From a phage, in sequence record OZ346167.1: 64,000 nt of DNA, one strand, 5' to 3'. Below the pieces are notes generated by a model that saw nothing but the letters and a program-made list of their open reading frames with translations, was not told the origin of the DNA and made no database searches. Positions 10,737 through 48,408 of the stretch are shown one piece after another (the stretch's first letter is position 1; every line of letters begins with the position of its first letter). The position numbers were made by a program, and so were the translations under genes.

Positions 10737-12908
10737 CGCATAAATGCCATTTTTGGCTTTCTTACGACCTTTTGTAATCTCGTGGAGAAGTTCCTCATCC
10801 TGTGTCTCCCTACAACGAACAATATCTTCTTCCTTGTTCAGACCAAAGTAAATACTGTTCAGTGTATGCGCATCAGTCCCTGTGTAGACTTCATAGAGGT
10901 CGTTCTCAGCATCATAACGAAGATACTTGTCAGTTTCTGGATTAAGGTGCTTATCAAGATGTTTGCAATAATATCTCCCATCTTCTTGCTTGGTAAATTC
11001 TACTGACTCTTTACCTTCAGTTACTGCTTTAGTGAACTCTTTATCACCCATAAAGTTACACAGTAAAACAAGCTGTGCAGAGTTCTGGTCAACAGAAACA
11101 ATGTTAGTCCCCTCTTCACAAATCCACACTGCCCTCATAGGTGCTCCATAGACAGCAGCACCAGACGGTACGTTTACAATACCATATTGTGTCATACGTC
11201 CAGTTGAAGTACCAAACACCATTGCACCAGCACTAAGGCGACCATCAGGACGAATCTGGTTCAACCAACCTTTTTCATCATCCTTTGAGTTCTCAATAGT
11301 TCTGCGTCGGTGCATCAAAGTATAGTACTTAGCAATCTTCTGTCCAAGCTCACCTTCAATCGTATCATAAGATGATTCAGTAAGTTTTGGTGAAGTACGG
11401 ATTAAGCAAGGCTCAAGCAAGTCTGTGTATTTCTTCACAGACCAGTTATGCTCAATGTACTGTACACCTTCATGTTCAACATAACTCAAACCACACCGCT
11501 CAACCATTTCCTGCCACTTAGGATGCTTTGTAATCATCTTTTTATTGTCTTTGAAACGACAAACTTTGACAGGGCGACCATCTGAGTCTTTCTTGTAATT
11601 CCAGTCATCTGGAATCCAACCAACTGATTTCAAGTAGTCTTTAACAACTGCTACCTGAGTCATACGAGAAACTTCAAACTCAATTGGTGTATATGGTGCA
11701 TCAATCAAACCTGTGTAGCGACTTGACTCAAGTTCAAAGTGATTAACAACGTGGCTGTTATAGTACTTCACAGTTTTGACTGTTTTTACTGGCTTCCAGT
11801 CTTTGCATTTCTTACCAATCTTTGCGTTCAACTCATTGCAAATTGCACGAGCATCCTTCATTGCTACAAATCCCTCTTTGTACTCTTCACCAGTTACAGA
11901 GTTGGTTGGTGTATAGCAATTTCTCTTTTCAATGTTAAAAATCTTTGTAGTTGGCTTACCAAATGGCTTGATTTCATATGTCTGCATCTCACCGTTACGT
12001 ACCTGCTGACGATACTTTGTCTTAGGGTACTTGGTAATCCTCTTCAGCCCATCTGCATGACCGAATGCTTCAACATATTCATTCCAAGCTTTTGCAAACT
12101 CTTCTCCAGTAACTTTACCTTTGGTCTTAATAGTTGGAGGAAGATGTGGTTCAACCTCTGAAGCAAGCTCATTAGTCAACTTGTCAAGTTCCTTTACATG
12201 GAACTCCATAAGCTCTTTATCAGCTTTCCAACCATTGATAGCTTGCTGGCTCATCCAGAAAGATGTTTCTTTAGCTCGCATGTAGGTTTCATAAGTGTCT
12301 ATGCCACACTTCTTAAGCTTGAGATACTCGTTATCAAGTGCCCGTTTAGTTTTGGCGTTAATACGGATATCTTCTACGACACGAGTGAAGATTTCTGCAT
12401 TCCACACACCCCAATGCTCAATCTCTGGCTTACGAACACCAACACGAGCACCCCATGCAGCCAAACCATGAGCACCTTTATAACCCTTTGGAGTTGGCCT
12501 ATCCATCCACTGAACACGAGACTGGATAAGAGAATCCTGAAAGAAATTACCCCACGGCTTACATTTTGGATTATCAAAGTTCCATAAATCAGGTGCAATG
12601 TGATTGAAAACCCACCAGTCATAACCGAGACCATTATGGATGCAAAGACGTTTTGCCTTTAACGCAAATTCAACACCTTCACGTAAACCACCTTTGATGT
12701 ACTTAGTGTACTTGTGACCGAGGATAGGCTCATCTGTAAAGACCCATACAGGTGGCTCTTCATCGTCAGATTTATAGTCTGCAAAGGCCATTACGTGAAC
12801 TTTAGTGAACTCAAGGAGTAAACCATCAGTTTCTGTATCACCAACCAAATGTAAGTTTTTAAAATCTACGTTTTCCATTTTTACTCCCTCTAAAATCATT
12901 AACCTCAT
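10695..12908 (-). CDS. DNA polymerase (family A) with 3'-5' exonuclease domain, 5' exon (ORF runs into the intron; true exon probably ends near 10737)
   Basis: exonuclease motif VGDTETDG near N-terminus; ends ...RKKAKNGIYA at start of motif B. Confidence 0.85.
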   Translation of the reverse strand: MRLMILEGVKMENVDFKNLHLVGDTETDGLLLEFTKVHVMAFADYKSDDEEPPVWVFTDEPILGHKYTKYIKGGLREGVEFALKAKRLCIHNGLGYDWWVFNHIAPDLWNFDNPKCKPWGNFFQDSLIQSRVQWMDRPTPKGYKGAHGLAAWGARVGVRKPEIEHWGVWNAEIFTRVVEDIRINAKTKRALDNEYLKLKKCGIDTYETYMRAKETSFWMSQQAINGWKADKELMEFHVKELDKLTNELASEVEPHLPPTIKTKGKVTGEEFAKAWNEYVEAFGHADGLKRITKYPKTKYRQQVRNGEMQTYEIKPFGKPTTKIFNIEKRNCYTPTNSVTGEEYKEGFVAMKDARAICNELNAKIGKKCKDWKPVKTVKTVKYYNSHVVNHFELESSRYTGLIDAPYTPIEFEVSRMTQVAVVKDYLKSVGWIPDDWNYKKDSDGRPVKVCRFKDNKKMITKHPKWQEMVERCGLSYVEHEGVQYIEHNWSVKKYTDLLEPCLIRTSPKLTESSYDTIEGELGQKIAKYYTLMHRRRTIENSKDDEKGWLNQIRPDGRLSAGAMVFGTSTGRMTQYGIVNVPSGAAVYGAPMRAVWICEEGTNIVSVDQNSAQLVLLCNFMGDKEFTKAVTEGKESVEFTKQEDGRYYCKHLDKHLNPETDKYLRYDAENDLYEVYTGTDAHTLNSIYFGLNKEEDIVRCRETQDEELLHEITKGRKKAKNGIYASVAHVKRCELLEA

Positions 12909-12937
12909 ACATTACTGCAAAAAATTATAAAAAGCAA

Positions 12938-12961
12938 GTTGACAATGTACTTGACAAGGTG
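12938..12961 (+). promoter_or_regulatory. Conserved promoter-like motif GTTGACAATGTACTTGACAAGGTG in divergent intergenic region
   Basis: same ACTTGACAAGGTG core recurs at 29434 and 55241. Confidence 0.4.
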
Positions 12962-13135
12962 TTAATCTTTGCGAAGTGGGTTTTTACTTAAAAGGTTACT
13001 TAACAGTTTAACTATACAGATACTTTAAAACTCTTAAAAGATTATTTAATAGCTTTTAAAAAGCTTTAAAGTATAACGTATAGAATACGTTAAGATAAAA
13101 GATTAAAACTTAATAGTTACTTAAAAGAGGCTTAC

Positions 13136-13558
13136 ATGCAGAAAATGTTTGTTCACCCAGACATAGCTGACTTTGTTAGAGCTTTGCAGAAGTTGGAAGA
13201 ACTTGACATTGCTGCTCAACGGGAATATGCTCACCATCACAGGAGAATGGTTGATATACAACATGAAATAGAGTTATCTGAAAACTATGAAGATGACTTA
13301 AAATGCTCTGTATTTGAGCATATGAAAGATGTTGCTACAGCGAGACGTAAAGCTAAAGACACAGTTGCTTTACTAGATTCTCTTAAAAAGAGGTTGCAAA
13401 GTGGTACAGACCTGTGTAATCTAGCGTCACTGATTAACGATGTTGAAACTTCTTGGGATAGGCACTATTATCCACGTTCTGAAAAGACACTTGACTTTTC
13501 TTCATCCGAAAACTTAAAATGTTCTAGAAAGAAACTTAACCAACTGAGAGAGAAATAA
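13136..13558 (+). CDS. Hypothetical protein
   Basis: 140-aa ORF. Confidence 0.55.
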   Translation: MQKMFVHPDIADFVRALQKLEELDIAAQREYAHHHRRMVDIQHEIELSENYEDDLKCSVFEHMKDVATARRKAKDTVALLDSLKKRLQSGTDLCNLASLINDVETSWDRHYYPRSEKTLDFSSSENLKCSRKKLNQLREK

Positions 13559-13559
13559 T

Positions 13560-14360
13560 ATGAATATCGATGTAGAAAAGATGCTTGAAGAAAAAGGTAT
13601 TGACGAAGCATTTTTAATCAATGCCGTAGAAAGCATGGCTATGATTCTTCGTGGGAACAACTACACAGAACAGTTTATGCCTTCAAGCTATAACTTGCCT
13701 GAAGACAAGTCTGATAACGGTGCTTTTGCAGAACAGGTTAACATGATGTTGACAGACACTACACTTGCTTTAGCATCTATAGTCGTAGGTGTTGATGCTC
13801 TTGCAGAGTTCATTTTTAAGGAGATGCAGAAAAATGACTATATCTCCCTTAACTCTGAAGAAAAGGACTTATTACTGTCATTAGGTAATAATGAGTTAAT
13901 TTCCATGATAATTTCATCAACAAGTGCTGTTATGGCTGCTCTTGAGAAGCGAATGGAAGAGAAGCTGTCACGATATGAAAAACTTGATTGGGGGGTAGAA
14001 GAACTAAACCCACGAATCCAAGAAATTATCCAGCAAACTAAAGAGTCTTTGGAAGAAGCTGTTGAAAATGACTCTGTAGCTGATATAGAACCACTTCAGG
14101 TGAAAGTTGCACTGATGATTCCAGCTATCTCTACGATGATGAATATCGTTGCACTAATCCAACTTTCACAGATGATGGGTATGAGTATTGAGTTCATTGA
14201 GGAGATGACTGGTGGTGTCAGTCTGCAAGCAATCAATGATGTTTTGGTGAACATTGGTGCTTCAATCATTGAAGAAAAACTACGCATTAACTTCGGTGAT
14301 GATTTTGTGAAGCAAATCTCAGCTATGGCTGAAAAAGAGTCTGCTGAGCAACTGCACTAA
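13560..14360 (+). CDS. Hypothetical protein
   Basis: 266-aa ORF. Confidence 0.55.
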   Translation: MNIDVEKMLEEKGIDEAFLINAVESMAMILRGNNYTEQFMPSSYNLPEDKSDNGAFAEQVNMMLTDTTLALASIVVGVDALAEFIFKEMQKNDYISLNSEEKDLLLSLGNNELISMIISSTSAVMAALEKRMEEKLSRYEKLDWGVEELNPRIQEIIQQTKESLEEAVENDSVADIEPLQVKVALMIPAISTMMNIVALIQLSQMMGMSIEFIEEMTGGVSLQAINDVLVNIGASIIEEKLRINFGDDFVKQISAMAEKESAEQLH

Positions 14361-40105: not shown

Positions 40106-40420
40106 TTTTCATTTTCAATTTGTGCAGGTATCTGTAGGGGTCTGTACAGATATCCCAAAAAATCTCATCGCCGGATAGAAAAATCATTCTCAAAACGTGC
40201 AGACCCCGCTCAGGTCGGGCAAGAAAAATCATTTTAGAATTGTGCAGGTAGGTTTTTATAGAGAGCCAGCCCAGCCCCTCTCCCCCTCTTACTCCCCCTC
40301 TCCCCAAAAGTCAAGAGAAAAATTTGTAGCGGATTGAAAAATAATTCTTGATTTGCGTTCTGTTTTGTGGTAGTCGTGCGCACCCGTTTCATTACAGTTT
40401 TGCCAAAAATATTTTTAAAA
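40105..40420. repeat. Iteron-like direct repeats (AAAAATCATTnnnAnnnTGTGCAGG, about 4 copies) with a C-rich tract CCCCTCTCCCCCTCTTACTCCCCCTCTCCCC
   Basis: repeat copies near 40105, 40185, 40222, 40322; no ORF with RBS. Confidence 0.55.
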
Positions 40421-40426
40421 TTTTTA

Positions 40427-40518
40427 TTGACTCTTTGAACGTGGTTACCTAATATTTACATCAACGGGGAGGGAATGACCTTCCCCACTAAATAAAATCC
40501 TAAACTGGAGATTCAAAA
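40427..40518 (+). promoter_or_regulatory. Early-type promoter (TTGACT-N17-TAATAT) + leader hairpin GGGGAGGGAATGACCTTCCCC + conserved RBS leader
   Basis: type-2 reiterated element, also at 43068, 43934, 45178, 45745, 46339. Confidence 0.6.
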
Positions 40519-40707
40519 ATGGCATCAAGAAAAATTAAAGTTGGCGATGAGGTTAACATCAAGCACGAACACTCTTACAAAATGCTAACTATACGCTCTT
40601 ATAAGGTTTATCAGGTGGAAGCTATCCACAAAGATAACACTTTTTCCTTAAAAGGTTATAGCGAACGTTTCCCTGCTGAACTCTTTGAGAAATGGAGCGC
40701 GAAATAA
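40519..40707 (+). CDS. Early small protein
   Basis: 62-aa ORF behind type-2 element. Confidence 0.55.
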   Translation: MASRKIKVGDEVNIKHEHSYKMLTIRSYKVYQVEAIHKDNTFSLKGYSERFPAELFEKWSAK

Positions 40708-40913
40708 TGCTTTACAGTCGTGAATTGATGGTTACAACTAACGTTAACACAAAGGTAAAACGTTTTTACATGCAAATTTGTGGCGTATGGTCTAGAATAT
40801 CAGAGGCTGACTATTGCAACTATGTAGAAACAGCTATAAACTCTAATTGCTATCTTACAAGAAATACAAGAAAGTACATAAGACAGACAGCAATTTACTA
40901 CTACGATAAATAA
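40707..40913 (+). CDS. Early small protein
   Basis: ATG overlapping upstream stop (TAATG). Confidence 0.5.
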   Translation: MLYSRELMVTTNVNTKVKRFYMQICGVWSRISEADYCNYVETAINSNCYLTRNTRKYIRQTAIYYYDK

Positions 40914-40999
40914 AGTACTTTACAAGGGGCTTATAGTTCGATAAAGTAAGCCCCAGATAAAGAGCTTTACCACTAAATCCTAAACTGGAGAACTTAAAA
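40914..40999 (+). promoter_or_regulatory. Type-1 intergenic element: hairpin GGGGCTTA..TAAGCCCC + conserved leader AGATAAAGAGCTTTACCACTAAATCCTAAACTGGAGA
   Basis: reiterated at 41384, 41762, 42362, 43435, 44226; stem shows compensatory changes. Confidence 0.6.
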
Positions 41000-41380
41000 A
41001 TGGCATACCGCGCACCGAAATTCATCAATAAAGAAAATTTTCGTAATGTATTAGAGAAGGCGCTTGATGAAAAATTTAACGGCAAAATAATTGTTGTTCA
41101 CTCGTTCAATTTCAAGTATGATATCAACGGGAATAAAATCAACCATTACACGGCAACCATGTTAGATGGCAATCTTTCAAGTGAAAAAGCCGTACTGAAT
41201 GCACTTGCTGGACGTGGAAAAAATCTGATAAGATGTGATAAGAGACGTTATCAGGGCGGCGCATATGGTTATGATGATGCTATCTATCATCTTGAAAATA
41301 TGGGCTATCAAGTAGAAAAAGCTGGAGTATCACAAATCATCGGGAGCGATGGTTATGTAACAATCTTCAAAATTAACTGA
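41000..41380 (+). CDS. Early small protein
   Basis: 126-aa ORF behind type-1 element. Confidence 0.55.
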   Translation: MAYRAPKFINKENFRNVLEKALDEKFNGKIIVVHSFNFKYDINGNKINHYTATMLDGNLSSEKAVLNALAGRGKNLIRCDKRRYQGGAYGYDDAIYHLENMGYQVEKAGVSQIIGSDGYVTIFKIN

Positions 41381-41383
41381 TAA

Positions 41384-41469
41384 AGTACTTTACAAGGGGC
41401 TTATAGTTCGATAAAGTAAGCCCCAGATAAAGAGCTTTAACACTAAAATCCTAAATTGGAGATTCTAAA
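41384..41469 (+). promoter_or_regulatory. Type-1 intergenic hairpin/leader element
   Basis: same sequence family as 40914..40999. Confidence 0.6.
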
Positions 41470-41763
41470 ATGGCTATTATCAGAAACGTTGTAATTACTG
41501 CAAAGACTCGTGATGACGCTCGCGCTATGGCTAAAAAGTTATGCGGGAAAGTGGTTGACAACGGAAAACAATCTGCTGTAAGATGGGGCGTAAAGGTTGA
41601 TAAACATTTGAAGTTAAAAAATTCACCGATAAACCTTTTTACATGTGTAAACACTATCGGGAAGACAAATGTATACACGAAAAAGGCATATATTAGACGC
41701 GTAGCATTAACATCCCCCATTCGTACAATGAGAAGTTATGCAAAGCTAAAAATTAACAAATAA
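41470..41763 (+). CDS. Early small basic protein
   Basis: 97-aa ORF. Confidence 0.55.
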   Translation: MAIIRNVVITAKTRDDARAMAKKLCGKVVDNGKQSAVRWGVKVDKHLKLKNSPINLFTCVNTIGKTNVYTKKAYIRRVALTSPIRTMRSYAKLKINK

Positions 41764-41848
41764 AGTACTTTACAAGGGGCTTAAAAGCTGGTATCTTAAG
41801 CCCCAGATAAAGAGCTTTACCACTAAATCCTAAACTGGAGATTCCAAA
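41762..41848 (+). promoter_or_regulatory. Type-1 intergenic hairpin/leader element (loop variant)
   Basis: GGGGCTTAAAAGCTGGTATCTTAAGCCCC. Confidence 0.6.
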
Positions 41849-42361
41849 ATGAAAACTGTAGACGCTACCTTTGAAGTTGTAAAAGAAAAATTCACCATTA
41901 TTTATGAAGCTGTTAATTGCTACGAAGCAAGCCATAATCTTGATAATTGGAAGTTTACAGATGACCATCAAGGCGGCGTGACTATTAAAAACCCTAACTG
42001 TCAGCGTAACGATTTTAAATATGCAATCCCTTTAAATTATAGCCTTAAACAGCTTTCTAGTGACTATGCAAAACAAGGCCGGGAAAACCCATCAAAAGAG
42101 GCTTACACCAGCTTACAGAAAGAACTAGAAAGAGATTTAGAGGCTTCAGAATACAACCTTGCCGCGAAAGTTATCGATGCAAATGGCAACACGGTTTTAG
42201 AGAGTTTTTATCTAGGATATGCCTTTGATTGGTGCTATAGTGACGGCGATGATTTAGATGACAGACTAAAAGAGGAAGTGAACAATTCAGACGCAGAATC
42301 TGAAGTATTAGAACGTCTGGAATCATTAAAAGACTCAGTGATGAATATCTTTAAGAACTAA
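41849..42361 (+). CDS. Early protein
   Basis: 170-aa ORF. Confidence 0.55.
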   Translation: MKTVDATFEVVKEKFTIIYEAVNCYEASHNLDNWKFTDDHQGGVTIKNPNCQRNDFKYAIPLNYSLKQLSSDYAKQGRENPSKEAYTSLQKELERDLEASEYNLAAKVIDANGNTVLESFYLGYAFDWCYSDGDDLDDRLKEEVNNSDAESEVLERLESLKDSVMNIFKN

Positions 42362-42448
42362 GTAGATTTCTTTACACGGGGCTATCAAGCTGATAAGATA
42401 GCCCCAGATAAAGAGCTTTACCACTAAATCCTAAACTGGAGATTCAAA
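42362..42448 (+). promoter_or_regulatory. Type-1 intergenic hairpin/leader element (compensatory stem variant GGGGCTAT..ATAGCCCC)
   Basis: covarying stem with conserved flanks. Confidence 0.6.
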
Positions 42449-42745
42449 ATGAAATTATCAAATAAAGTCCGTGAAAATCTAAGCAAGTTACTCAACAAAA
42501 TTGATTTTATCGAGACATCAAGGAATAGCCACGATGTTATGGAATGGTTACACGGAAAAATTAAAGGCCGTCGTGTAGTGATTTGCTTATGGAATAGTTG
42601 CAGGGAGTATAAAAAACCTGTATTGCAAGTCAATATTTATGATGATACTTTTAAAAGTCCAGTAAAGTCTAAAAGTGATTTATTAGAATCCTATGAGATA
42701 GCTGTAAGTGGCAAAGTATCACGTAAAGAGGAATCACCATGCTAA
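42449..42745 (+). CDS. Early small protein
   Basis: 98-aa ORF. Confidence 0.55.
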   Translation: MKLSNKVRENLSKLLNKIDFIETSRNSHDVMEWLHGKIKGRRVVICLWNSCREYKKPVLQVNIYDDTFKSPVKSKSDLLESYEIAVSGKVSRKEESPC

Positions 42746-43071
42746 TGACTGGCATCACTGCAATTATAGCCATTTTCGCGCTCTATAAGGCATATAAAGC
42801 CTATAATCTAGCAAATAAGGCAATCACACAGCAGGTTAGCAACAGCCTTGTAGAGAGCTTTCTAGAGCGTTTGAGTGATGAACAATTAAAACGGTTAGAA
42901 ATGAGCTTCAGATTTCAATCAAAAACTTATCAAATCAGCGACATTTTCAAAGATGATTTTCAGCTAGTCGATGATTATAATGCTCTGATAAATGCTTTAA
43001 ATATCAGTGACTTAAAAGACTATTACGCTGTAATTGTTCAAGAATTAAGCAAACGAAAACAAAACTGTTGA
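42739..43071 (+). CDS. Early small membrane protein
   Basis: N-terminal TMD ITAIIAIFALY. Confidence 0.5.
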   Translation: MLMTGITAIIAIFALYKAYKAYNLANKAITQQVSNSLVESFLERLSDEQLKRLEMSFRFQSKTYQISDIFKDDFQLVDDYNALINALNISDLKDYYAVIVQELSKRKQNC

Positions 43072-43161
43072 CACTGATTTCTAGATAGATTAAATTACAC
43101 ATCAACGGCGAGGGAATGAACTTCCCCACTAAGTAAAGTCCTTAAACTAGGAGATTCAAAA
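43068..43161 (+). promoter_or_regulatory. Type-2 element: TTGACA-N17-TAAATT promoter + leader hairpin
   Basis: -35 overlaps upstream stop codon. Confidence 0.6.
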
Positions 43162-43434
43162 ATGTATACTACTAACAACGGTCGCACTTTGAACGTAACC
43201 CTGCACCACTATGTGAACGGTGTAATGCACTTCGAGGATTTACAAGCCGAACAACATATCTTAGATTGGCAACTTGCAGGACTCCAAAAAACTGCTACCG
43301 GATACGGGAAAAAGATTCCAACTAGCTGGAAAGTATACTACGAAGGACGTTTGCGCAGAATTTATCAGGATGTATATAGCAATAGCACAACAAGTTACAT
43401 CATGGTAAAAGGTAAAAAATTACACTTAGTATAA
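43162..43434 (+). CDS. Early small protein
   Basis: 90-aa ORF. Confidence 0.55.
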   Translation: MYTTNNGRTLNVTLHHYVNGVMHFEDLQAEQHILDWQLAGLQKTATGYGKKIPTSWKVYYEGRLRRIYQDVYSNSTTSYIMVKGKKLHLV

Positions 43435-43519
43435 AGTACTTTACAAGGGGCTTATAGTTCGATAAAGTAAGCCCCAGATAAAGAGCTTTATCACTCAATC
43501 CTAAATTGGAGATTCTAAA
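43435..43519 (+). promoter_or_regulatory. Type-1 intergenic hairpin/leader element
   Basis: same family. Confidence 0.6.
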
Positions 43520-43924
43520 ATGGCTATTAATAATCGTGAGTTATCAATCTTAAAAGCACGTTTGACCGTTAACCGGATTAATGTTATTACGTCATCAGCG
43601 CCTGATGAAACATTGCACAACATTATCGGAAAGATTCAAAGCGTTATCTTAGACGTTGAAAACGTAAAAAGTTCATTGGCTGACGTTGCAGCAGGTATCA
43701 CGCTAGACGGTGCGCAATATGAAATGGCTGACATGTTAGGCAAATCGAAGGTAATGAATAAAGAGCTTGATTTAAAAATGTTTCGATTTGCCGTGAAAGT
43801 ATGGTTATCTGTCGAGTATGACGCTAATTTTGCAATCGCTGATTTCTTTGCCACTTGGTTACAACGTAATTTGACAAATCATGATTTTCGTGGTGTCTGT
43901 GATGCAATTTATGCAGAACTCTAA
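43520..43924 (+). CDS. Early protein
   Basis: 134-aa ORF. Confidence 0.55.
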   Translation: MAINNRELSILKARLTVNRINVITSSAPDETLHNIIGKIQSVILDVENVKSSLADVAAGITLDGAQYEMADMLGKSKVMNKELDLKMFRFAVKVWLSVEYDANFAIADFFATWLQRNLTNHDFRGVCDAIYAEL

Positions 43925-43933
43925 AAAATTTTG

Positions 43934-44024
43934 TTGACACTGGTTTTTAGATAGATTAAATTACACATCAACGGGAGGGAATGACCTTCCCCACTAAATA
44001 AAATCCTAAACTGGAGATTCTAAA
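43934..44024 (+). promoter_or_regulatory. Type-2 element: TTGACA-N17-TAAATT promoter + leader hairpin
   Basis: near-identical to 43068 element. Confidence 0.6.
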
Positions 44025-44228
44025 ATGGCTATTATTAACGGCTTACACATTGAAACAACTCACATCAAAGATATTAAAGTTGGTGATGTAGTCCTTTCCC
44101 ACGGCGTAGAAAAAACTGTCACTGCAAAGGATATCAAAGAGGATTCTTTCATGGGTAGGACTCTCTTCGGTGATTCTTATTGCTTAGGGTATCTTGCAGT
44201 CTTAAAAGTTGTCAAAAATAACAAATAA
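44025..44228 (+). CDS. Early small protein
   Basis: 67-aa ORF. Confidence 0.5.
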   Translation: MAIINGLHIETTHIKDIKVGDVVLSHGVEKTVTAKDIKEDSFMGRTLFGDSYCLGYLAVLKVVKNNK

Positions 44229-44316
44229 AGTACTTTACAAGGGGCTTATAGTTCGATAAAGTAAGCCCCAGATAAAGAGCTTTACCACTAAATCCTTAAA
44301 CTAGGAGATTCAAAAA
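44226..44316 (+). promoter_or_regulatory. Type-1 intergenic hairpin/leader element
   Basis: same family. Confidence 0.6.
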
Positions 44317-44883
44317 ATGAAATGCTATCACGGCACTACTCTGAAAAACTTTGTAAACCTGCTTAAAGGTGGCAACAAGCCGGAAGGTATCTGGAACTGC
44401 TCTTACATGGATGATTGTTTTTACGTTTACCCGATGGATAAGATTATCAAGACGGAATGTCTGGAAGATGAAGAAGCTTCTTACATCCGTGAACGCTGCA
44501 TTCAAAACGCTTTAGAGTCGGGGCTTATTACGGCAGCTTTCCAAATGGAAACGCAGGAAGTGATTGTAATTGAGATGGATATCCCAGAGGAAGAACTTGA
44601 GGACGATTATTCTTGTGACAACATGAGCGAAATCGCCAGCTTTACCGGTTACTTTGATAAAGATTGGATTATTGGTATTCACTCAACGAAATTTAGTGCA
44701 ATGTATGCGCCATTCTTTGTACCTGATACAACTAACCGCAATTTGGGCTATATTGACGATGATTTGTTGAGTATTGCAAAAATTGTACAGGATAGCGGTG
44801 ATACTTCTTCTGTGTTTTGTGACCTGCTGGATAAAATTACCGAGAATCTCACAGAGCGCAATCTAAGCGACTTTTTAGACTAA
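44317..44883 (+). CDS. Early acidic protein
   Basis: 188-aa ORF. Confidence 0.55.
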   Translation: MKCYHGTTLKNFVNLLKGGNKPEGIWNCSYMDDCFYVYPMDKIIKTECLEDEEASYIRERCIQNALESGLITAAFQMETQEVIVIEMDIPEEELEDDYSCDNMSEIASFTGYFDKDWIIGIHSTKFSAMYAPFFVPDTTNRNLGYIDDDLLSIAKIVQDSGDTSSVFCDLLDKITENLTERNLSDFLD

Positions 44884-44946
44884 GCAGTACAAAGACACTA
44901 ATTTCCAACTTAAGGCCCATACAGGGCCATTTAAAGGGCTTAAATC

Positions 44947-45180
44947 ATGCTTACAACCGTTTACCTCATCCTTTCCATCTGTAATGGTCATTCATGCGAT
45001 TTTAAAGGGCTTGAAGAGTTTACAGGAAGTAAAGAAAATGCTATTCAAGTTTGCCAGATAGCACGGCAAGACTATCCCGCAAGTGATGATATACAATGCT
45101 ACTTTAAGACAGAAGATGAAGACGGCATCTATTTTGACAGCGTTGACGGTCAATATGAAATTATCATTGAAAAAGACTAG
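44947..45180 (+). CDS. Early small protein
   Basis: 77-aa ORF preceded by GGCCC..GGGCC hairpin. Confidence 0.5.
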   Translation: MLTTVYLILSICNGHSCDFKGLEEFTGSKENAIQVCQIARQDYPASDDIQCYFKTEDEDGIYFDSVDGQYEIIIEKD

Positions 45181-45271
45181 ACAAGCCTGATAAAAGTCTG
45201 TAAATTGTCAATCAACGGGGAGGGAATGACCTTCCCCACTAAATAAAGTCCTTAAACTAGGAGATTCTAAA
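45178..45271 (+). promoter_or_regulatory. Type-2 element: TAGACA-N17-TAAATT promoter + leader hairpin
   Basis: same family. Confidence 0.55.
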
Positions 45272-45613
45272 ATGGCTTATGTAACTGTAATTACCGATAA
45301 AGAAGATTCATCTTGGTCAACTCAAGTAAGTGATAAGATGTCACCTATGCAGTGCCTAAAATACTTTGAGCAGTGGAACAAAGGCGAGGATGTCAGCCCC
45401 TTTCAAGTGATGCAGATTATTCATGTAGACAATGAAGGGAAGAAAACGACTCTGAACAGTGAGTACTATGCGAGCCGCTTCGAAACGAGAAGTAAAACAA
45501 TGAAGCTTCTACGTGAATCCGGTTATTCTCATATTGCCGCGCTAATCTGGGATGACCTGCTAAAAAACCAACGTATCAGCTACGTAAAACCTGAAAAAAT
45601 ATTCATCAGTTAA
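45272..45613 (+). CDS. Early protein
   Basis: 113-aa ORF. Confidence 0.55.
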   Translation: MAYVTVITDKEDSSWSTQVSDKMSPMQCLKYFEQWNKGEDVSPFQVMQIIHVDNEGKKTTLNSEYYASRFETRSKTMKLLRESGYSHIAALIWDDLLKNQRISYVKPEKIFIS

Positions 45614-45645
45614 TCAATAACTTACAAAAAACTTTTTAAAAAGTA

Positions 45646-45833
45646 TTGACAATACCCCTTGACATTGGTAAATTTGTTCGAGGGGGTTTATCTAAAAGGG
45701 ATTCACTTAAAAGATTCTTTATAGATAAGCTTAAAAAATTGCTTGCAATCAGCTATCAAAACAAGTAAATTACTAATCAACGGGGAGGCAATAACATCCC
45801 CACTAAATAAAATCCTAAACTGGAGATTCTAAA
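45646..45833 (+). promoter_or_regulatory. Tandem early promoters (TTGACA-N17-TAAATT; TTGCAA-N17-TAAATT) + leader hairpin GGGGAGGCAATAACATCCCC
   Basis: same family; hairpin stem variant. Confidence 0.55.
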
Positions 45834-46364
45834 ATGAACAAATTTCAAGCTATCAACCACATTCGTTCAAATAGTGTCATGTCTAAGCCTGTAAAAGACA
45901 CATACGAATTTCGCTGCAATGGTGTACACTTTGCAACCATCACCAAATCAGAAAACGGGGCTTATTATATCCATCGCCGTAATGTTTCGACCGTTGTAGT
46001 CTCTCACTTTATGCAAGCTGTAGCGGAATTATTGCCGTTATTCTTAGAGATTTATCTAGATGAGTGTAAAAACGTTCACAACCACGTTAAAAACCTTTTA
46101 AACGGTTATAAAATGGCTTATGAACGTTCTATCAAGTCGCTAAACAAGTTCTATAAAGCCCCTGAAAATACTGTATCAATAGCTTATGATGTAAGCGGTG
46201 AAATGGTCAACCTCTCCAATGTAGAACAAATTGGCCTTTATGACTCACGTCCTAGCGGTTACTCTAAGACACTGGGAGAAGGATTATCTTTCAATATCAA
46301 GAACTTAGAAAAAACTTTAAAAGATATTGAAAAAGACATTGACGAGACAATCAAAAATCTGTAA
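45834..46364 (+). CDS. Early protein
   Basis: 176-aa ORF. Confidence 0.55.
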   Translation: MNKFQAINHIRSNSVMSKPVKDTYEFRCNGVHFATITKSENGAYYIHRRNVSTVVVSHFMQAVAELLPLFLEIYLDECKNVHNHVKNLLNGYKMAYERSIKSLNKFYKAPENTVSIAYDVSGEMVNLSNVEQIGLYDSRPSGYSKTLGEGLSFNIKNLEKTLKDIEKDIDETIKNL

Positions 46365-46432
46365 ATTGTCAATCAACGGGGAGGGAATGACCCTCCCCAC
46401 TAAATAAAGTCCTTAAACTAGGAGATTCAAAA
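46339..46432 (+). promoter_or_regulatory. Type-2 element: TTGACG-N17-TAAATT promoter + leader hairpin
   Basis: same family. Confidence 0.55.
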
Positions 46433-46681
46433 ATGGCTACTATCCGCGCAACTGTTAACGAATTTGGCTTCTACTCTCTGGACGTTAAATTTGACCTTGT
46501 AGGTACTGATAACGCCTTTGAAATGGTGAAAGGCCTTATCAGCCAGACCATCAGTGACTACAACCCCTCTGATGAATTCTGGAAAGAAACAAAACAAGAA
46601 GCCCTTAAAGATGGTTACACTTATCACTATTGGGGCGAAAAAATTGTCTCCCTGTACTACGACAAAGAAGGCACTAACTAA
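46433..46681 (+). CDS. Early small protein
   Basis: 82-aa ORF; last gene of cassette. Confidence 0.55.
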   Translation: MATIRATVNEFGFYSLDVKFDLVGTDNAFEMVKGLISQTISDYNPSDEFWKETKQEALKDGYTYHYWGEKIVSLYYDKEGTN

Positions 46682-46718: not shown

Positions 46719-46744
46719 AGCCCCTTTATATGGGGCTTTTTTAC
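46719..46744 (+). terminator. Rho-independent terminator ending the early cassette
   Basis: AGCCCC..GGGGCT + TTTTTT. Confidence 0.65.
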
Positions 46745-47040
46745 GTCCTATCAAATCCCTTATACAACCCTTTTCCTTTCCTTTCCAGAATCTTACCAGA
46801 CCTTAAAAGCAATAACTTTACAGCCTTTTACTAAGTCAATTAATTGGCCTTATTAATAAGTCCTTAAACATAAGCCAATAACCCCAGAAAGGGGCAACCC
46901 GTTTAAACGCTCTATAAAGCTCTATAACAGCCTTATCAACCTAACTTAAGGGATTGCATTAACTCACCCTAAAAAGCCCTTTATAAAGCTTCCCAGAGAC
47001 TTAAAAGAATCTTATAAAGGTGTAAGCTTTATTCATCCGT

Positions 47041-47244
47041 TTATAAAATAGGACTGTCAAGTTATTTTTTAGGGTCTTTGAAGGAACTCAAAAATATCTG
47101 TAGAAGATGTATATCTGCTTGGTAGCCCTTAACAATCCCTTACAAGTACTTTGCAAAATTTTAAAATATCCTTAACAATCTCTTAACAGTTCTCACATCT
47201 TCTTAACAACTCTTCAAAGGTCTTAACAGATTCTTAACAAACCC
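47041..47244. repeat. Left arm of ~204-bp inverted repeat
   Basis: reverse complement of 47677..47880 with about 2 differences. Confidence 0.8.
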
Positions 47245-47676
47245 TACATAGTTATGCTTGTTAGCCCCTTGTTAAATCTCTGTTAAGACCATGTAAAAGC
47301 CTTGTAAGAGCCTTTGACATAGCCTTAAAAGCTCCTGTAAAGCCCTATAAAGAGCTTTCTGTATAGTTGGGGTGTAACTACTAGGAAGAGACTTAAAAGA
47401 GCTTATAAAGAGCTATAGAGAGCTTTTAAGAGGTATGTTTAAAGAATCACTAAGAGGGAAAGGGAACTATAGACCAAGAGATAGTGACCATGTTAATAGC
47501 TTGTTAAAAAGATTAAACACTTGTTAGGAATTTGTTAATTATCTTAATTGGTATTGTTACCAATCCCTACAAAATAATCCTTTAAAATTAACTTGTTAGC
47601 TCTTGTTAGCAATCTGTTAAGATTCTGTAAAGTCTATGTAGCACTTGTTAGAGATTTGTTACACCCTTGTTAGTTC

Positions 47677-47880
47677 TGTTAAGAATCTGTTAAGACCTTT
47701 GAAGAGTTGTTAAGAAGATGTGAGAACTGTTAAGAGATTGTTAAGGATATTTTAAAATTTTGCAAAGTACTTGTAAGGGAGTTGTTAAGGGCTACCAAGC
47801 AGATATACATCTTCTACAGATATTTTTGAGTTCCTTCAAAGACCCTAAAAAATGACTTGACAGTCCTATTTTATAAAAAT
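47677..47880. repeat. Right arm of ~204-bp inverted repeat
   Basis: reverse complement of 47041..47244. Confidence 0.8.
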
Positions 47881-48408
47881 TTTAAGATTCTGAATAATTA
47901 ACTATACAGCCTTTTAAAAATACAGGTAATAACAGGCTTATAAGATACCTTGTTAGTACCGTGTTAGACCTTGTGAGATAAGGTCTGTAAAGATATCCCT
48001 GTTAAGTTTGTTAAAACAGTCTATATAGAGGCTTAGTAATACCTAGTGAACACCTATAGAGAGTGTCATAGCTGACATAGAGATTAAGAGGTGTATAGGG
48101 GCTTCTAAGAGGGTATAGAGAGACGGTTAAGGTGATTGTATAGGTTGTTAAGAAGGCTTGTTAGAAGAGTGTTTAGAAGGCTTGTTAGAGGGCTTGTTAG
48201 AAGGGTTATACAGAGGGGCTATTAAGACCACTAGATAGTTACTAAGATACTATATAGTACTATATAACTATATAGAGAGTAAGATTAAGAAGGTTGTTAA
48301 GAAGGGTAGATATTTTATTCACATATAATGGTGACCCAGAGGTTGGGACAACCGATAAAATTTTATAAAAATTAAAAAGCCCCCAATTAAGGAGGCTCTT
48401 AAGATATT

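Follow-up and report, generated by a model that had tools for sequence, protein, structure and literature searches.

The subject of this report is a gene-free field of about 1.6 kb (46745 to 48400) in a phage DNA stretch of 64,000 nt, record OZ346167.1, which was available to us as sequence only; the whole stretch is referred to here as the window, and all positions follow its numbering. According to our analysis, this field very probably is the chromosome-end and concatemer-junction region of a Felixounavirus, consisting of a direct terminal repeat (DTR), unique non-coding flanks, and convergent terminators. By sequence similarity, the window phage itself is a member of this genus, i.e., a Felix O1-like myophage. 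The field also contains an inverted repeat with arms of about 200 nt, which an earlier note on this DNA had treated as the core of the element, under the description of a 204-bp palindrome. This view fails, since the large palindrome was found only in the window phage and its left arm is a recent inverted duplication. The palindrome is thus not part of the conserved design of the region, and it represents a lineage-specific rearrangement and not a new class of element.

The field is deemed to be the concatemer junction and virion terminus region because it is homologous to the DTRs of related phages, and published DTR sizes concur. Exact DTRs, with 100% identical copies at both record ends, are found in the records of E9 (PP886229; 580 bp), NBEco005 (651 bp), CRP22 (579 bp), and ZX4221 (591 bp). 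They start with GCCCCCTTAACAT and end with GTTAAGGGCTACC, and they map to 47221 to 47796 of the window. The whole interval matches 255 records, belonging to Felixounavirus and other Ounavirinae, at 80 to 93% identity. When a query restricted to the DTR interior was used, 288 places were detected in these 255 records, about 33 of which carry two copies. The DTR interior lies at the record end in several cases, e.g., REP10, ECOH1, MET-P1-301, SLAM_phiST56, and Z31, while several GenBank records begin inside the field, 60 to 80 bp to the left of window position 47257, and contain two field copies.

Among the options listed in the earlier note, that of a packaging or terminus-proximal element is the one supported by this homology to the DTR and flanks of relatives, and the published terminus mapping agrees with it (PMC4837284, PMC6454146). 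In UAB_Phi87, a 608-bp DTR was determined by Bal31 digestion and run-off sequencing, Felix O1 and FO1a were stated to have repeats of similar size, and the terminases of Felix O1 type were found to cluster with those of DTR phages (PMC4837284). PhageTerm analysis assigned a 613-bp DTR to vB_EcoM-Ro111lw (PMC6454146) and the DTR type to four further Felixounavirus genomes (PMC11737134). The UAB_Phi87 record version starts in the tRNA cluster, and its DTR was checked only indirectly, via the boundary-to-boundary distance; the boundary motifs are 614 bp apart, compared with the published 608 bp. DTRs of about 600 bp are thus already published for the genus, and the region described here is, on sequence grounds, a member of this set by homology, genomic context, and right boundary, and a variant at its left boundary.

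Two terminal overlaps were rejected as DTRs and are regarded as assembly overlaps, namely, the 99 bp of OP924282 (OP924282.1), located in a repeated early-region cassette, and the 127-bp "repeat_region" at the ends of PC79-13 (OR687644.2), a record that is marked circular. Most of the approximately 255 related records were opened arbitrarily and carry no DTR. One match to the field comes from a record whose organism name begins with "Staphylococcus", which is probably mislabelled or contaminated.

Outside the repeat, the field is delimited by the following features.
46719 to 46737, + strand: intrinsic terminator (stem-loop AGCCCCTTTATATGGGGCT, then a T run) at the end of the + strand block of small genes, which occupies the right end of the virion chromosome
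46745 to 47039: unique non-coding flank adjoining the right-end repeat copy, with CTTWAAAG or CTATAAAG-type units phased at 10 to 11 bp
47879 to 48370: unique non-coding flank adjoining the left-end repeat copy, with ten + oriented TGTTA[AG] copies (47951 to 48295) at a spacing of 11 to 13 bp
48375 to 48400, - strand: intrinsic terminator at the end of the - strand gene block, which occupies the left end of the virion chromosome

The unique flanks extend for about 300 to 500 bp on each side of the DTR. The field lies in a non-coding gap between a FelixO1p049-like and a FelixO1p050-like gene, with convergent terminators, and its Felix O1 counterpart is the gap between ORF23 (+) and ORF24 (-) at 12306 to 13927. 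This gap is non-coding as well, and the homologous gap in allfine, Barry, and Bas63 is either unannotated or holds only "repeat_region" or terminator features, in keeping with the earlier expectation that the interval would be non-coding in relatives. It was also correctly noted that the field has no open reading frame (ORF) of at least 60 aa, the longest ones within 46745 to 48400 being of 30 to 34 aa. In phage Barry, a terminator is annotated at the site homologous to 46719 to 46737. Both flanking gene blocks are transcribed toward the chromosome ends and are stopped by these terminators, which, being convergent, would keep transcription of the two end-directed blocks out of the field. The gap is described neither in the Felix O1 genome paper nor in the later Felixounavirus comparative paper, and our literature search returned no transcriptome paper for Felixounavirus. 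The region explains why assemblies of Felix O1-like genomes come out circular, with a long "empty" gap, and indicates where they should be opened.

Regarding the boundaries of the repeat (marked here by a slash), each DTR of the four records starts with GCCCCCTTAACA and ends with TGTTAAGGGCTACC, and the left-end copy is followed by AAGCAGATATACA. The left boundary in the relatives reads ...ACGTAAATGCTA/GCCCCCTTAACA, with the cut context GCTA/GCCCCCTTAACA (GCTA/GCCCCC; in Barry, GCTA/ACCCCC). The right boundary, TGTTAAGGGCTACC/AAGCAGATATACA, is matched exactly in the window, as follows.
47790 to 47809, + strand: right DTR boundary (...GGCTACC ends at 47796, followed by AAGCAGATATACA at 47797 to 47809)

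The AAGCAGATATACA box follows the right boundary in every collapsed record and is invariant across four genera, even in Erwinia phage Omen. The distance between the two boundaries is 569 to 614 bp in ten collapsed records; it amounts to 569 to 602 bp in allfine, Felix O1, Barry, sp7, LNA6, and Bas63 and to 570 bp in the Mooglevirus and Suspvirus phages Michonne, Sf13, and SUSP1. In the literature searched, the boundary sequences were found in no phage context. With their help, termini could be annotated in some 250 related records, which for the most part have none.

The field is densely occupied by a short motif. TGTTA[AG] occurs 33 times in it, compared with about 1.5 times per kb elsewhere (about 20-fold enrichment), TTGTTA 25 times versus 1.2 expected, and CTTGTTAG 10 times versus 0.03 expected; exact TGTTAAG is found 37 times in the window, 17 of them inside the field, and this cluster is unique in the 64 kb. 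While the earlier claim of saturation with short motifs stands, that of their occurrence in both orientations has to be amended, since the strands are not mixed: all heptamers from 47129 to 47234 are on the - strand and all those from 47259 to 48295 on the + strand, with a single switch near 47250. The heptamers are spaced by 11, 20, or 12 to 13 bp, and the base autocorrelation over the whole field peaks at lags 10 and 11 (z = 7.8 and 9.9 versus the rest of the window), with harmonics at 21 to 22 and 31 to 32, which indicates that the units are phased with the DNA helix (about 10.7 bp). In the relatives, the left edge of the DTR carries three - heptamers at 11-bp spacing just inside the cut, and the remaining DTR as well as the flank beyond the right boundary carries + oriented heptamers. 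The array next to the right boundary is the following.
47677 to 47789, + strand: TGTTAAG array with starts at 47677, 47688, 47708, 47728, 47739, and 47783, including the conserved box GATATTTTAAAATTTTGCAAAG at 47746 to 47767

Upstream of the right cut, the array spacing is 11, 20, 20, and 11 bp, followed by the GATATTTTAAAATTTTGCAAAG box, two heptamer-like units, and the cut after 47796. Four genera were aligned, with Felixounavirus represented by the window phage and Felix O1 and Kolesnikvirus by the Erwinia phage Omen, alongside Mooglevirus and Suspvirus. The heptamer cores (TGTTAA), AAGCAGATATACA, and most of the GATAT..GCAAAG box are unchanged in all of them, and the positions in between vary. 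Over 14 phages, conservation per 30-column block is highest (92 to 99%) at 47785 to 47873, 47935 to 48053, and 48082 to 48140, the last two stretches being conserved at 93 to 99%; the blocks of 46900 to 47017 show 85 to 95% majority identity. A sequence-specific protein that lines one face of the DNA would be expected to leave such a footprint, with fixed, helically phased sites and drifting spacers. Thus, the option of a protein-binding array, which had also been raised before, receives indirect support, and the arrays most likely are, judging from these patterns, binding sites for a protein of the packaging machinery. In Omen (PP278848), a different phased array, made up of TCTTCTAA(A/G) units (e.g., GTCTTCTAAACAGCATTCTAAGCCG...CCCTTCTAAGTCTCTTCTAAGAGCATTCTACG), was observed at 1700 to 2060, to the left of the heptamer field. 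The flank arrays are therefore genus-specific in sequence and alike in design.

The inverted repeat of the window phage is superimposed on this arrangement and has three parts.
47040 to 47240: left arm, a lineage-specific inverted copy of 47677 to 47878 that replaces the 120 to 140 bp or so containing the relatives' normal left DTR boundary
47241 to 47676: spacer of 436 nt, interior of the terminal repeat, collinear in the 255 records
47677 to 47878: right arm, the ancestral copy, which extends across the right DTR boundary (120 bp within the DTR, 82 bp beyond it)

A global alignment of 47036 to 47256 with the reverse complement of 47660 to 47885 showed that the arms, of about 201 and 202 nt, are reverse-complementary to each other except for one mismatch and an indel of 1 nt. 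The earlier report of an inverted repeat of 47041 to 47244 with 47677 to 47880, with about two differences, was therefore accurate to within 1 to 4 nt. The repeat search splits it into two abutting pairs of 96 nt (99%) and 113 nt (96%). Folded as single-stranded DNA, the interval reaches -264.9 kcal/mol, compared with -75.7 +/- 5.2 for shuffled sequences; this corresponds to z = -36.7 and places the inverted repeat far beyond chance.

When we inspected the related genomes for the palindrome, no inverted repeat of at least 40 nt with high complementarity was detected in allfine, Felix O1, Barry, or sp7. In all the relatives aligned (BLAST of six loci), 47040 to 47239 matches only in reverse, to the single right-arm copy, with 91 to 97% identity, and collinear alignment places a different segment of about 120 to 140 bp where the left arm sits. 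When 50,697 phage records were searched with a 401-bp query covering the left arm and both of its junctions, no collinear match exceeded 73% identity, and the left arm was in place in none of the 286 records that this query matched. Exact 28-mers and 22-mers across the outer junction of the left arm had no match in IMG/VR and in the JGI metagenomes. The right arm, instead, is present in all relatives, with 92 to 98% block conservation over 47785 to 47873. The left arm is closer to its own right arm (99%) than to the right arm of any relative (at most 97%). The comparison with related phages that had been proposed for this region has, therefore, a divided outcome: relatives show no conserved palindrome, yet they retain the non-coding motif field. 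Compared with the known Felixounavirus DTRs, the window phage shares homologous sequence, position, right boundary, heptamer arrays, and convergent terminators, and it differs in that about 120 to 140 bp at the left boundary are replaced by the 200-bp inverted copy, giving a palindrome found in none of the 255 related records.

The junctions of the left arm provide indications of how it arose. The normal left boundary, i.e., the outside flank ...ACGTAAATGCTA plus the first 15 bp or so of the DTR, is missing in the window phage, and the inverted copy of 47677 to 47878 is found instead. The inner junction falls within TCTTAACA..TTCTTAACAA, where the resident - heptamers are homologous to the reverse complement of the right-hand + array, whereas at the outer junction only a few bases (CGTT/TT) are common with the sequence of relatives, as in microhomology. 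This pattern fits gene conversion or template switching: either gene conversion or a replication template switch between the inverted arrays would have overwritten the normal left boundary with an inverted copy of the right one. The two differences between the arms were either acquired since the copying or retained. In the literature searched, we did not find a description of the inverted duplication, the phased heptamer field, the exact boundary sequences, or the mirror symmetry discussed below.

Two other readings of the palindrome were rejected. It is not a transposon or miniature inverted-repeat transposable element with terminal inverted repeats, since the spacer and the right arm are native and collinear in the relatives and the left arm alone is extra, replacing resident sequence; moreover, there is no transposase nearby. 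A hairpin telomere was rejected because of the 436-bp spacer, which does not make a perfect palindrome, and because no protelomerase is encoded nearby. As a side observation, recombination between the 200-bp arms could invert the 436-bp spacer (47241 to 47676), giving two isomers of the terminal repeat in the population.

It is also conceivable, but rather unlikely, that the inverted repeat is an assembly or library artefact at the genome ends, such as a fold-back chimera. The left-arm junction is seen in no other sequence of the 50,697 phage records, IMG/VR, and the JGI metagenomes, and the rearrangement is situated exactly at the chromosome terminus, where library artefacts are commonest. 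However, the arms are not identical (one substitution, one indel), and an artefact would require two separate, consistent junctions together with the loss of about 120 to 140 bp of native sequence. The copied segment crosses the junction of DTR and unique sequence and is thus not a simple product of end-to-end ligation, and the inverted heptamer arrays in which the inner junction is located are homologous, as would result from real recombination.

The arms would pair as a stem of about 200 bp in single-stranded nucleic acid, and the earlier note had accordingly also considered a large structured RNA. That the field encodes a large structured non-coding RNA, or that the palindrome acts as a cruciform, is in our opinion extremely improbable. 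None of the relatives has the left arm, without which the stem is not formed, and the structure thus lacks conservation. No Rfam family matches the field: the sole match in an Rfam scan was sub-threshold, to Phe_leader (25 bits versus a gathering score of 55) at 48375 to 48400, and it reflects the terminator hairpin located there. Promoter-like sites are at chance level (11 versus 8.4 +/- 3.0 expected); on inspection, no acceptable -10 hexamer was seen 16 to 18 bp from the TTGACA at 47859. Finally, inward-facing terminators bracket the region.

The rearrangement bears on the position of the ends of this phage. The left boundary of the relatives, ...ACGTAAATGCTA/GCCCCCTTAACA, is absent from the 64-kb window and thus also from the collinear position. 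The sole GCCC..TTAACA match in the window is GGTA/GCCCTTAACAA at 47121 to 47135, inside the inverted copy. In the relatives, the two boundaries of the DTR mirror each other over a short distance (TAGCCC..TTAACA), reading TA/GCCCCCTTAACA on the top strand at the left and GGTAGCCCTTAACA on the bottom strand at the right, and the outermost heptamer at each boundary points outward. The inverted copy carries the full set of right-boundary elements, namely, six heptamers, the GCAAAG box (as reverse complement, at about 47147 to 47170), the cut-site context, and the reverse complement of AAGCAGATATACA. The elements that define the predicted repeat are given below.
47108 to 47135, - strand: inverted right-boundary cut-site context, i.e., the reverse complement of AAGCAGATATACA (47108 to 47120) followed by GGTAGCCCTTAACAA (47121 to 47135)
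47121 to 47796: predicted DTR of the window phage, about 672 to 676 bp, in which 47221 to 47796 is homologous to the 569- to 651-bp DTR of relatives
47128 to 47239, - strand: six TGTTAAG heptamers, compared with three at the matching edge in relatives

Since the inverted copy carries the full right-boundary set, the left end is predicted to lie at 47121 to 47125: at 47121 if the mirror is strict or at 47125 by analogy with GCTA/GCCCCC. We infer that the inverted copy may serve as the left cut site, in which case the two boundaries of the predicted DTR would be exact mirror images.

Several points weigh against the identification of the field as the chromosome-end region or against details of it. 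As for the prediction of the ends, the normal left cut site is missing and the predicted left terminus rests on symmetry, which is itself short (about 12 of 14 nt); in addition, the 5' ends as reported are shifted by 4 nt from where this symmetry would place them. The DTR boundaries in GenBank derive partly from software calls, and the experimentally mapped repeat of UAB_Phi87 is 6 bp off the motif-to-motif distance. The flanking ORFs match only PHROGs of unknown function, with no Pfam family above threshold. No terminase gene was found among the window ORFs of at least 330 aa, the structural and packaging module, including the terminase genes, falling outside the 64-kb window. Lastly, the arrays reach about 500 bp past the DTR on each side, which is more than a cut-site signal obviously needs. 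Since they extend so far beyond the cuts, a second role is possible, e.g., in origin function, end protection, or the control of ejection or entry.

With respect to the first of these roles, the field may be, or include, a replication origin, in which case a phage initiator would bind the phased heptamers as iterons and the AT-rich stretch would be the unwinding element. Direct-repeated, helically phased short sites in an AT-rich non-coding tract are shared with iteron-type origins such as lambda ori, P1 oriR, and P4 ori/crr. The field contains 33 phased and directly repeated heptamers, although this trait is not specific to origins; the GC content at 47 to 48 kb is the lowest of the window (0.32 versus about 0.39); the zone lies between terminators and is presumably non-transcribed; and the arrays extend well past the DTR. 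Moreover, the origin of Felix O1-like phages is identified neither in the Felix O1 genome paper nor in the Felixounavirus comparative paper. However, we consider this explanation unlikely, since the arrays terminate exactly at the mapped chromosome ends and mirror across them, as a role in packaging would directly explain, and no initiator-like gene was recognized among the flanking ORFs, unlike in the iteron-type systems. A single DnaA-box match (48315) and no IHF consensus were found, these counts being not enriched, and the GC skew tracks gene orientation without an independent switch at the field. The replication origin proposed in the earlier note gains no specific support.

A role of the field in the control of DNA entry, comparable to the injection-stop signal (iss) of T5 that pauses genome transfer, is suggested by analogy and appears very unlikely. 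A repeat-rich, ORF-free tract with direct and inverted repeats at a chromosome end would be in line with it, the T5 iss being described as a cis-acting site in the terminal repeat (10.1101/866236). However, two-step transfer is not reported for Felix O1-like myophages in the literature searched, and neither terminal gene block is transcribed away from the end as a first-step-transfer segment would suggest. Sequence similarity is not expected between the two systems.

For chromosome-end formation in the field, the most likely mechanism is as follows. The heptamer arrays and boundary boxes would be assembly or recognition sites for the terminase or its DNA-recognition subunit, as the putative binder. 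The packaging machinery would cleave opposite strands of the concatemer at the two boundaries of the DTR. Synthesis with strand displacement, starting at the two 3' ends, would then provide each daughter end with a repeat copy of its own, as proposed for phages of the T7 type, in which every concatemer junction contains a single copy. The identity of the binding protein and the cutting chemistry are, in this scheme, supposed by analogy with known systems. The outward-facing heptamer and the TAGCCC at each boundary would fit an enzyme complex acting in mirrored orientation, and the asymmetric boxes of the right boundary could recruit the packaging machinery, like lambda cosB or SPP1 pacL/pacR.

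If the phage is viable and the assembly correct, the replacement of the left boundary by an inverted right boundary suggests that the two are functionally interchangeable. It can be regarded as a natural swap, which also removed all that relatives conserve outside the left cut: provided that the phage is viable and is cut at 47121 to 47125, it is possible, albeit somewhat doubtful, that the ends of Felix O1-type chromosomes arise by a two-fold symmetric reaction, in which the same protein-DNA complex, formed on outward-facing TGTTAAG arrays, nicks opposite strands. Were this true, GATAT..GCAAAG and AAGCAGATATACA, the boxes of the right boundary, would suffice as cis signals whichever way they point, the 1.6-kb phased field would be among the largest loading arrays described for a terminase (or an end-binding protein), and a directly testable model would be available for the duplication of short exact terminal repeats. 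To our knowledge, T7 is the only phage in which the mechanism of this duplication has been elucidated, and even there only in part. The mirrored boundaries, the phased arrays conserved across four genera, and the natural boundary replacement are concrete cis elements to test, in a phage group, that of Felix O1, which is widely used in Salmonella and E. coli diagnostics, in biocontrol, and in engineering (e.g., Bas63).

A comparable design is that of T7 and T3, in which a 160-bp terminal repeat is reportedly flanked by arrays of short repeats and terminase is said to process the junction, with duplication of the repeat. An inverted sequence at the T7 junction was proposed to matter for processing. 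The region described here likewise has a short, exact, non-permuted repeat with arrayed motifs in and beside it, in a genome with T7-like replication genes; nevertheless, the window phage is a myophage, of another virus family, its repeat is 4 times longer, its arrays are far larger (1.6 kb), and its motif is a different heptamer with strict helical phasing. The replication set of the window is T7-like, with primase-helicase, DNA polymerase, exonuclease, and ligase, and is consistent with a T7-style, linear, DTR-based life cycle. In lambda cosB, R sites are recognized by gpNu1, and in SPP1 pacL/pacR, phased boxes are bound by the small terminase. Multiple short, helix-phased boxes flanking a defined cut site are common to these sites and to the field. 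The likeness extends to the asymmetric elements on one side of the cut, as the GCAAAG and AAGCAGATATACA boxes are present only at the right boundary in relatives. However, lambda and SPP1 use cohesive ends or headful packaging and do not produce exact terminal repeats, and the window phage has far more boxes (over 30).

Some observations were made elsewhere in the window, which also encodes ribonucleotide reductases, NAMPT, and 25 tRNA genes. A 471-aa ORF matching PHROG 850, "RNA-binding protein" (55844 to 57259), lies directly upstream of the 25-tRNA cluster (57425 to 63554) and appears to match Bas63 g130. In the PhageMaP preprint, Bas63 g130 is described as Ro60-like, with the suggestion that some of the "tRNAs" may be Y-RNA-like partners. 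GATC, the site of Dam, MboI, DpnII, and Sau3AI, does not occur in the 64-kb window, while 185 +/- 12 occurrences are expected from dinucleotide-preserving shuffles; the Felix O1 paper reported a general resistance to Salmonella restriction enzymes, which was put down to low G+C content.

The + strand block of small ORFs at 40415 to 46438 is interspersed with two families of repeated intergenic cassettes. Those of the first family, of about 98 nt, start at 40888, 41358, 41738, 43409, and 44203 and contain the hairpin GGGGCTTA...TAAGCCCC; those of the second, of about 86 to 107 nt, start at 40415/40441, 43055/43082, 43921, 45192, 45730, and 46353 and contain the hairpin GGGGAGGGAATGACCTTCCCC. 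Every cassette of both families terminates in the conserved leader ...CCTAAACTGGAGATTCnAAAATG. The cassettes, some of which coincide with direct repeats already catalogued by Whichard et al. 2010, look like reiterated modules of terminator, leader, and ribosome-binding site.

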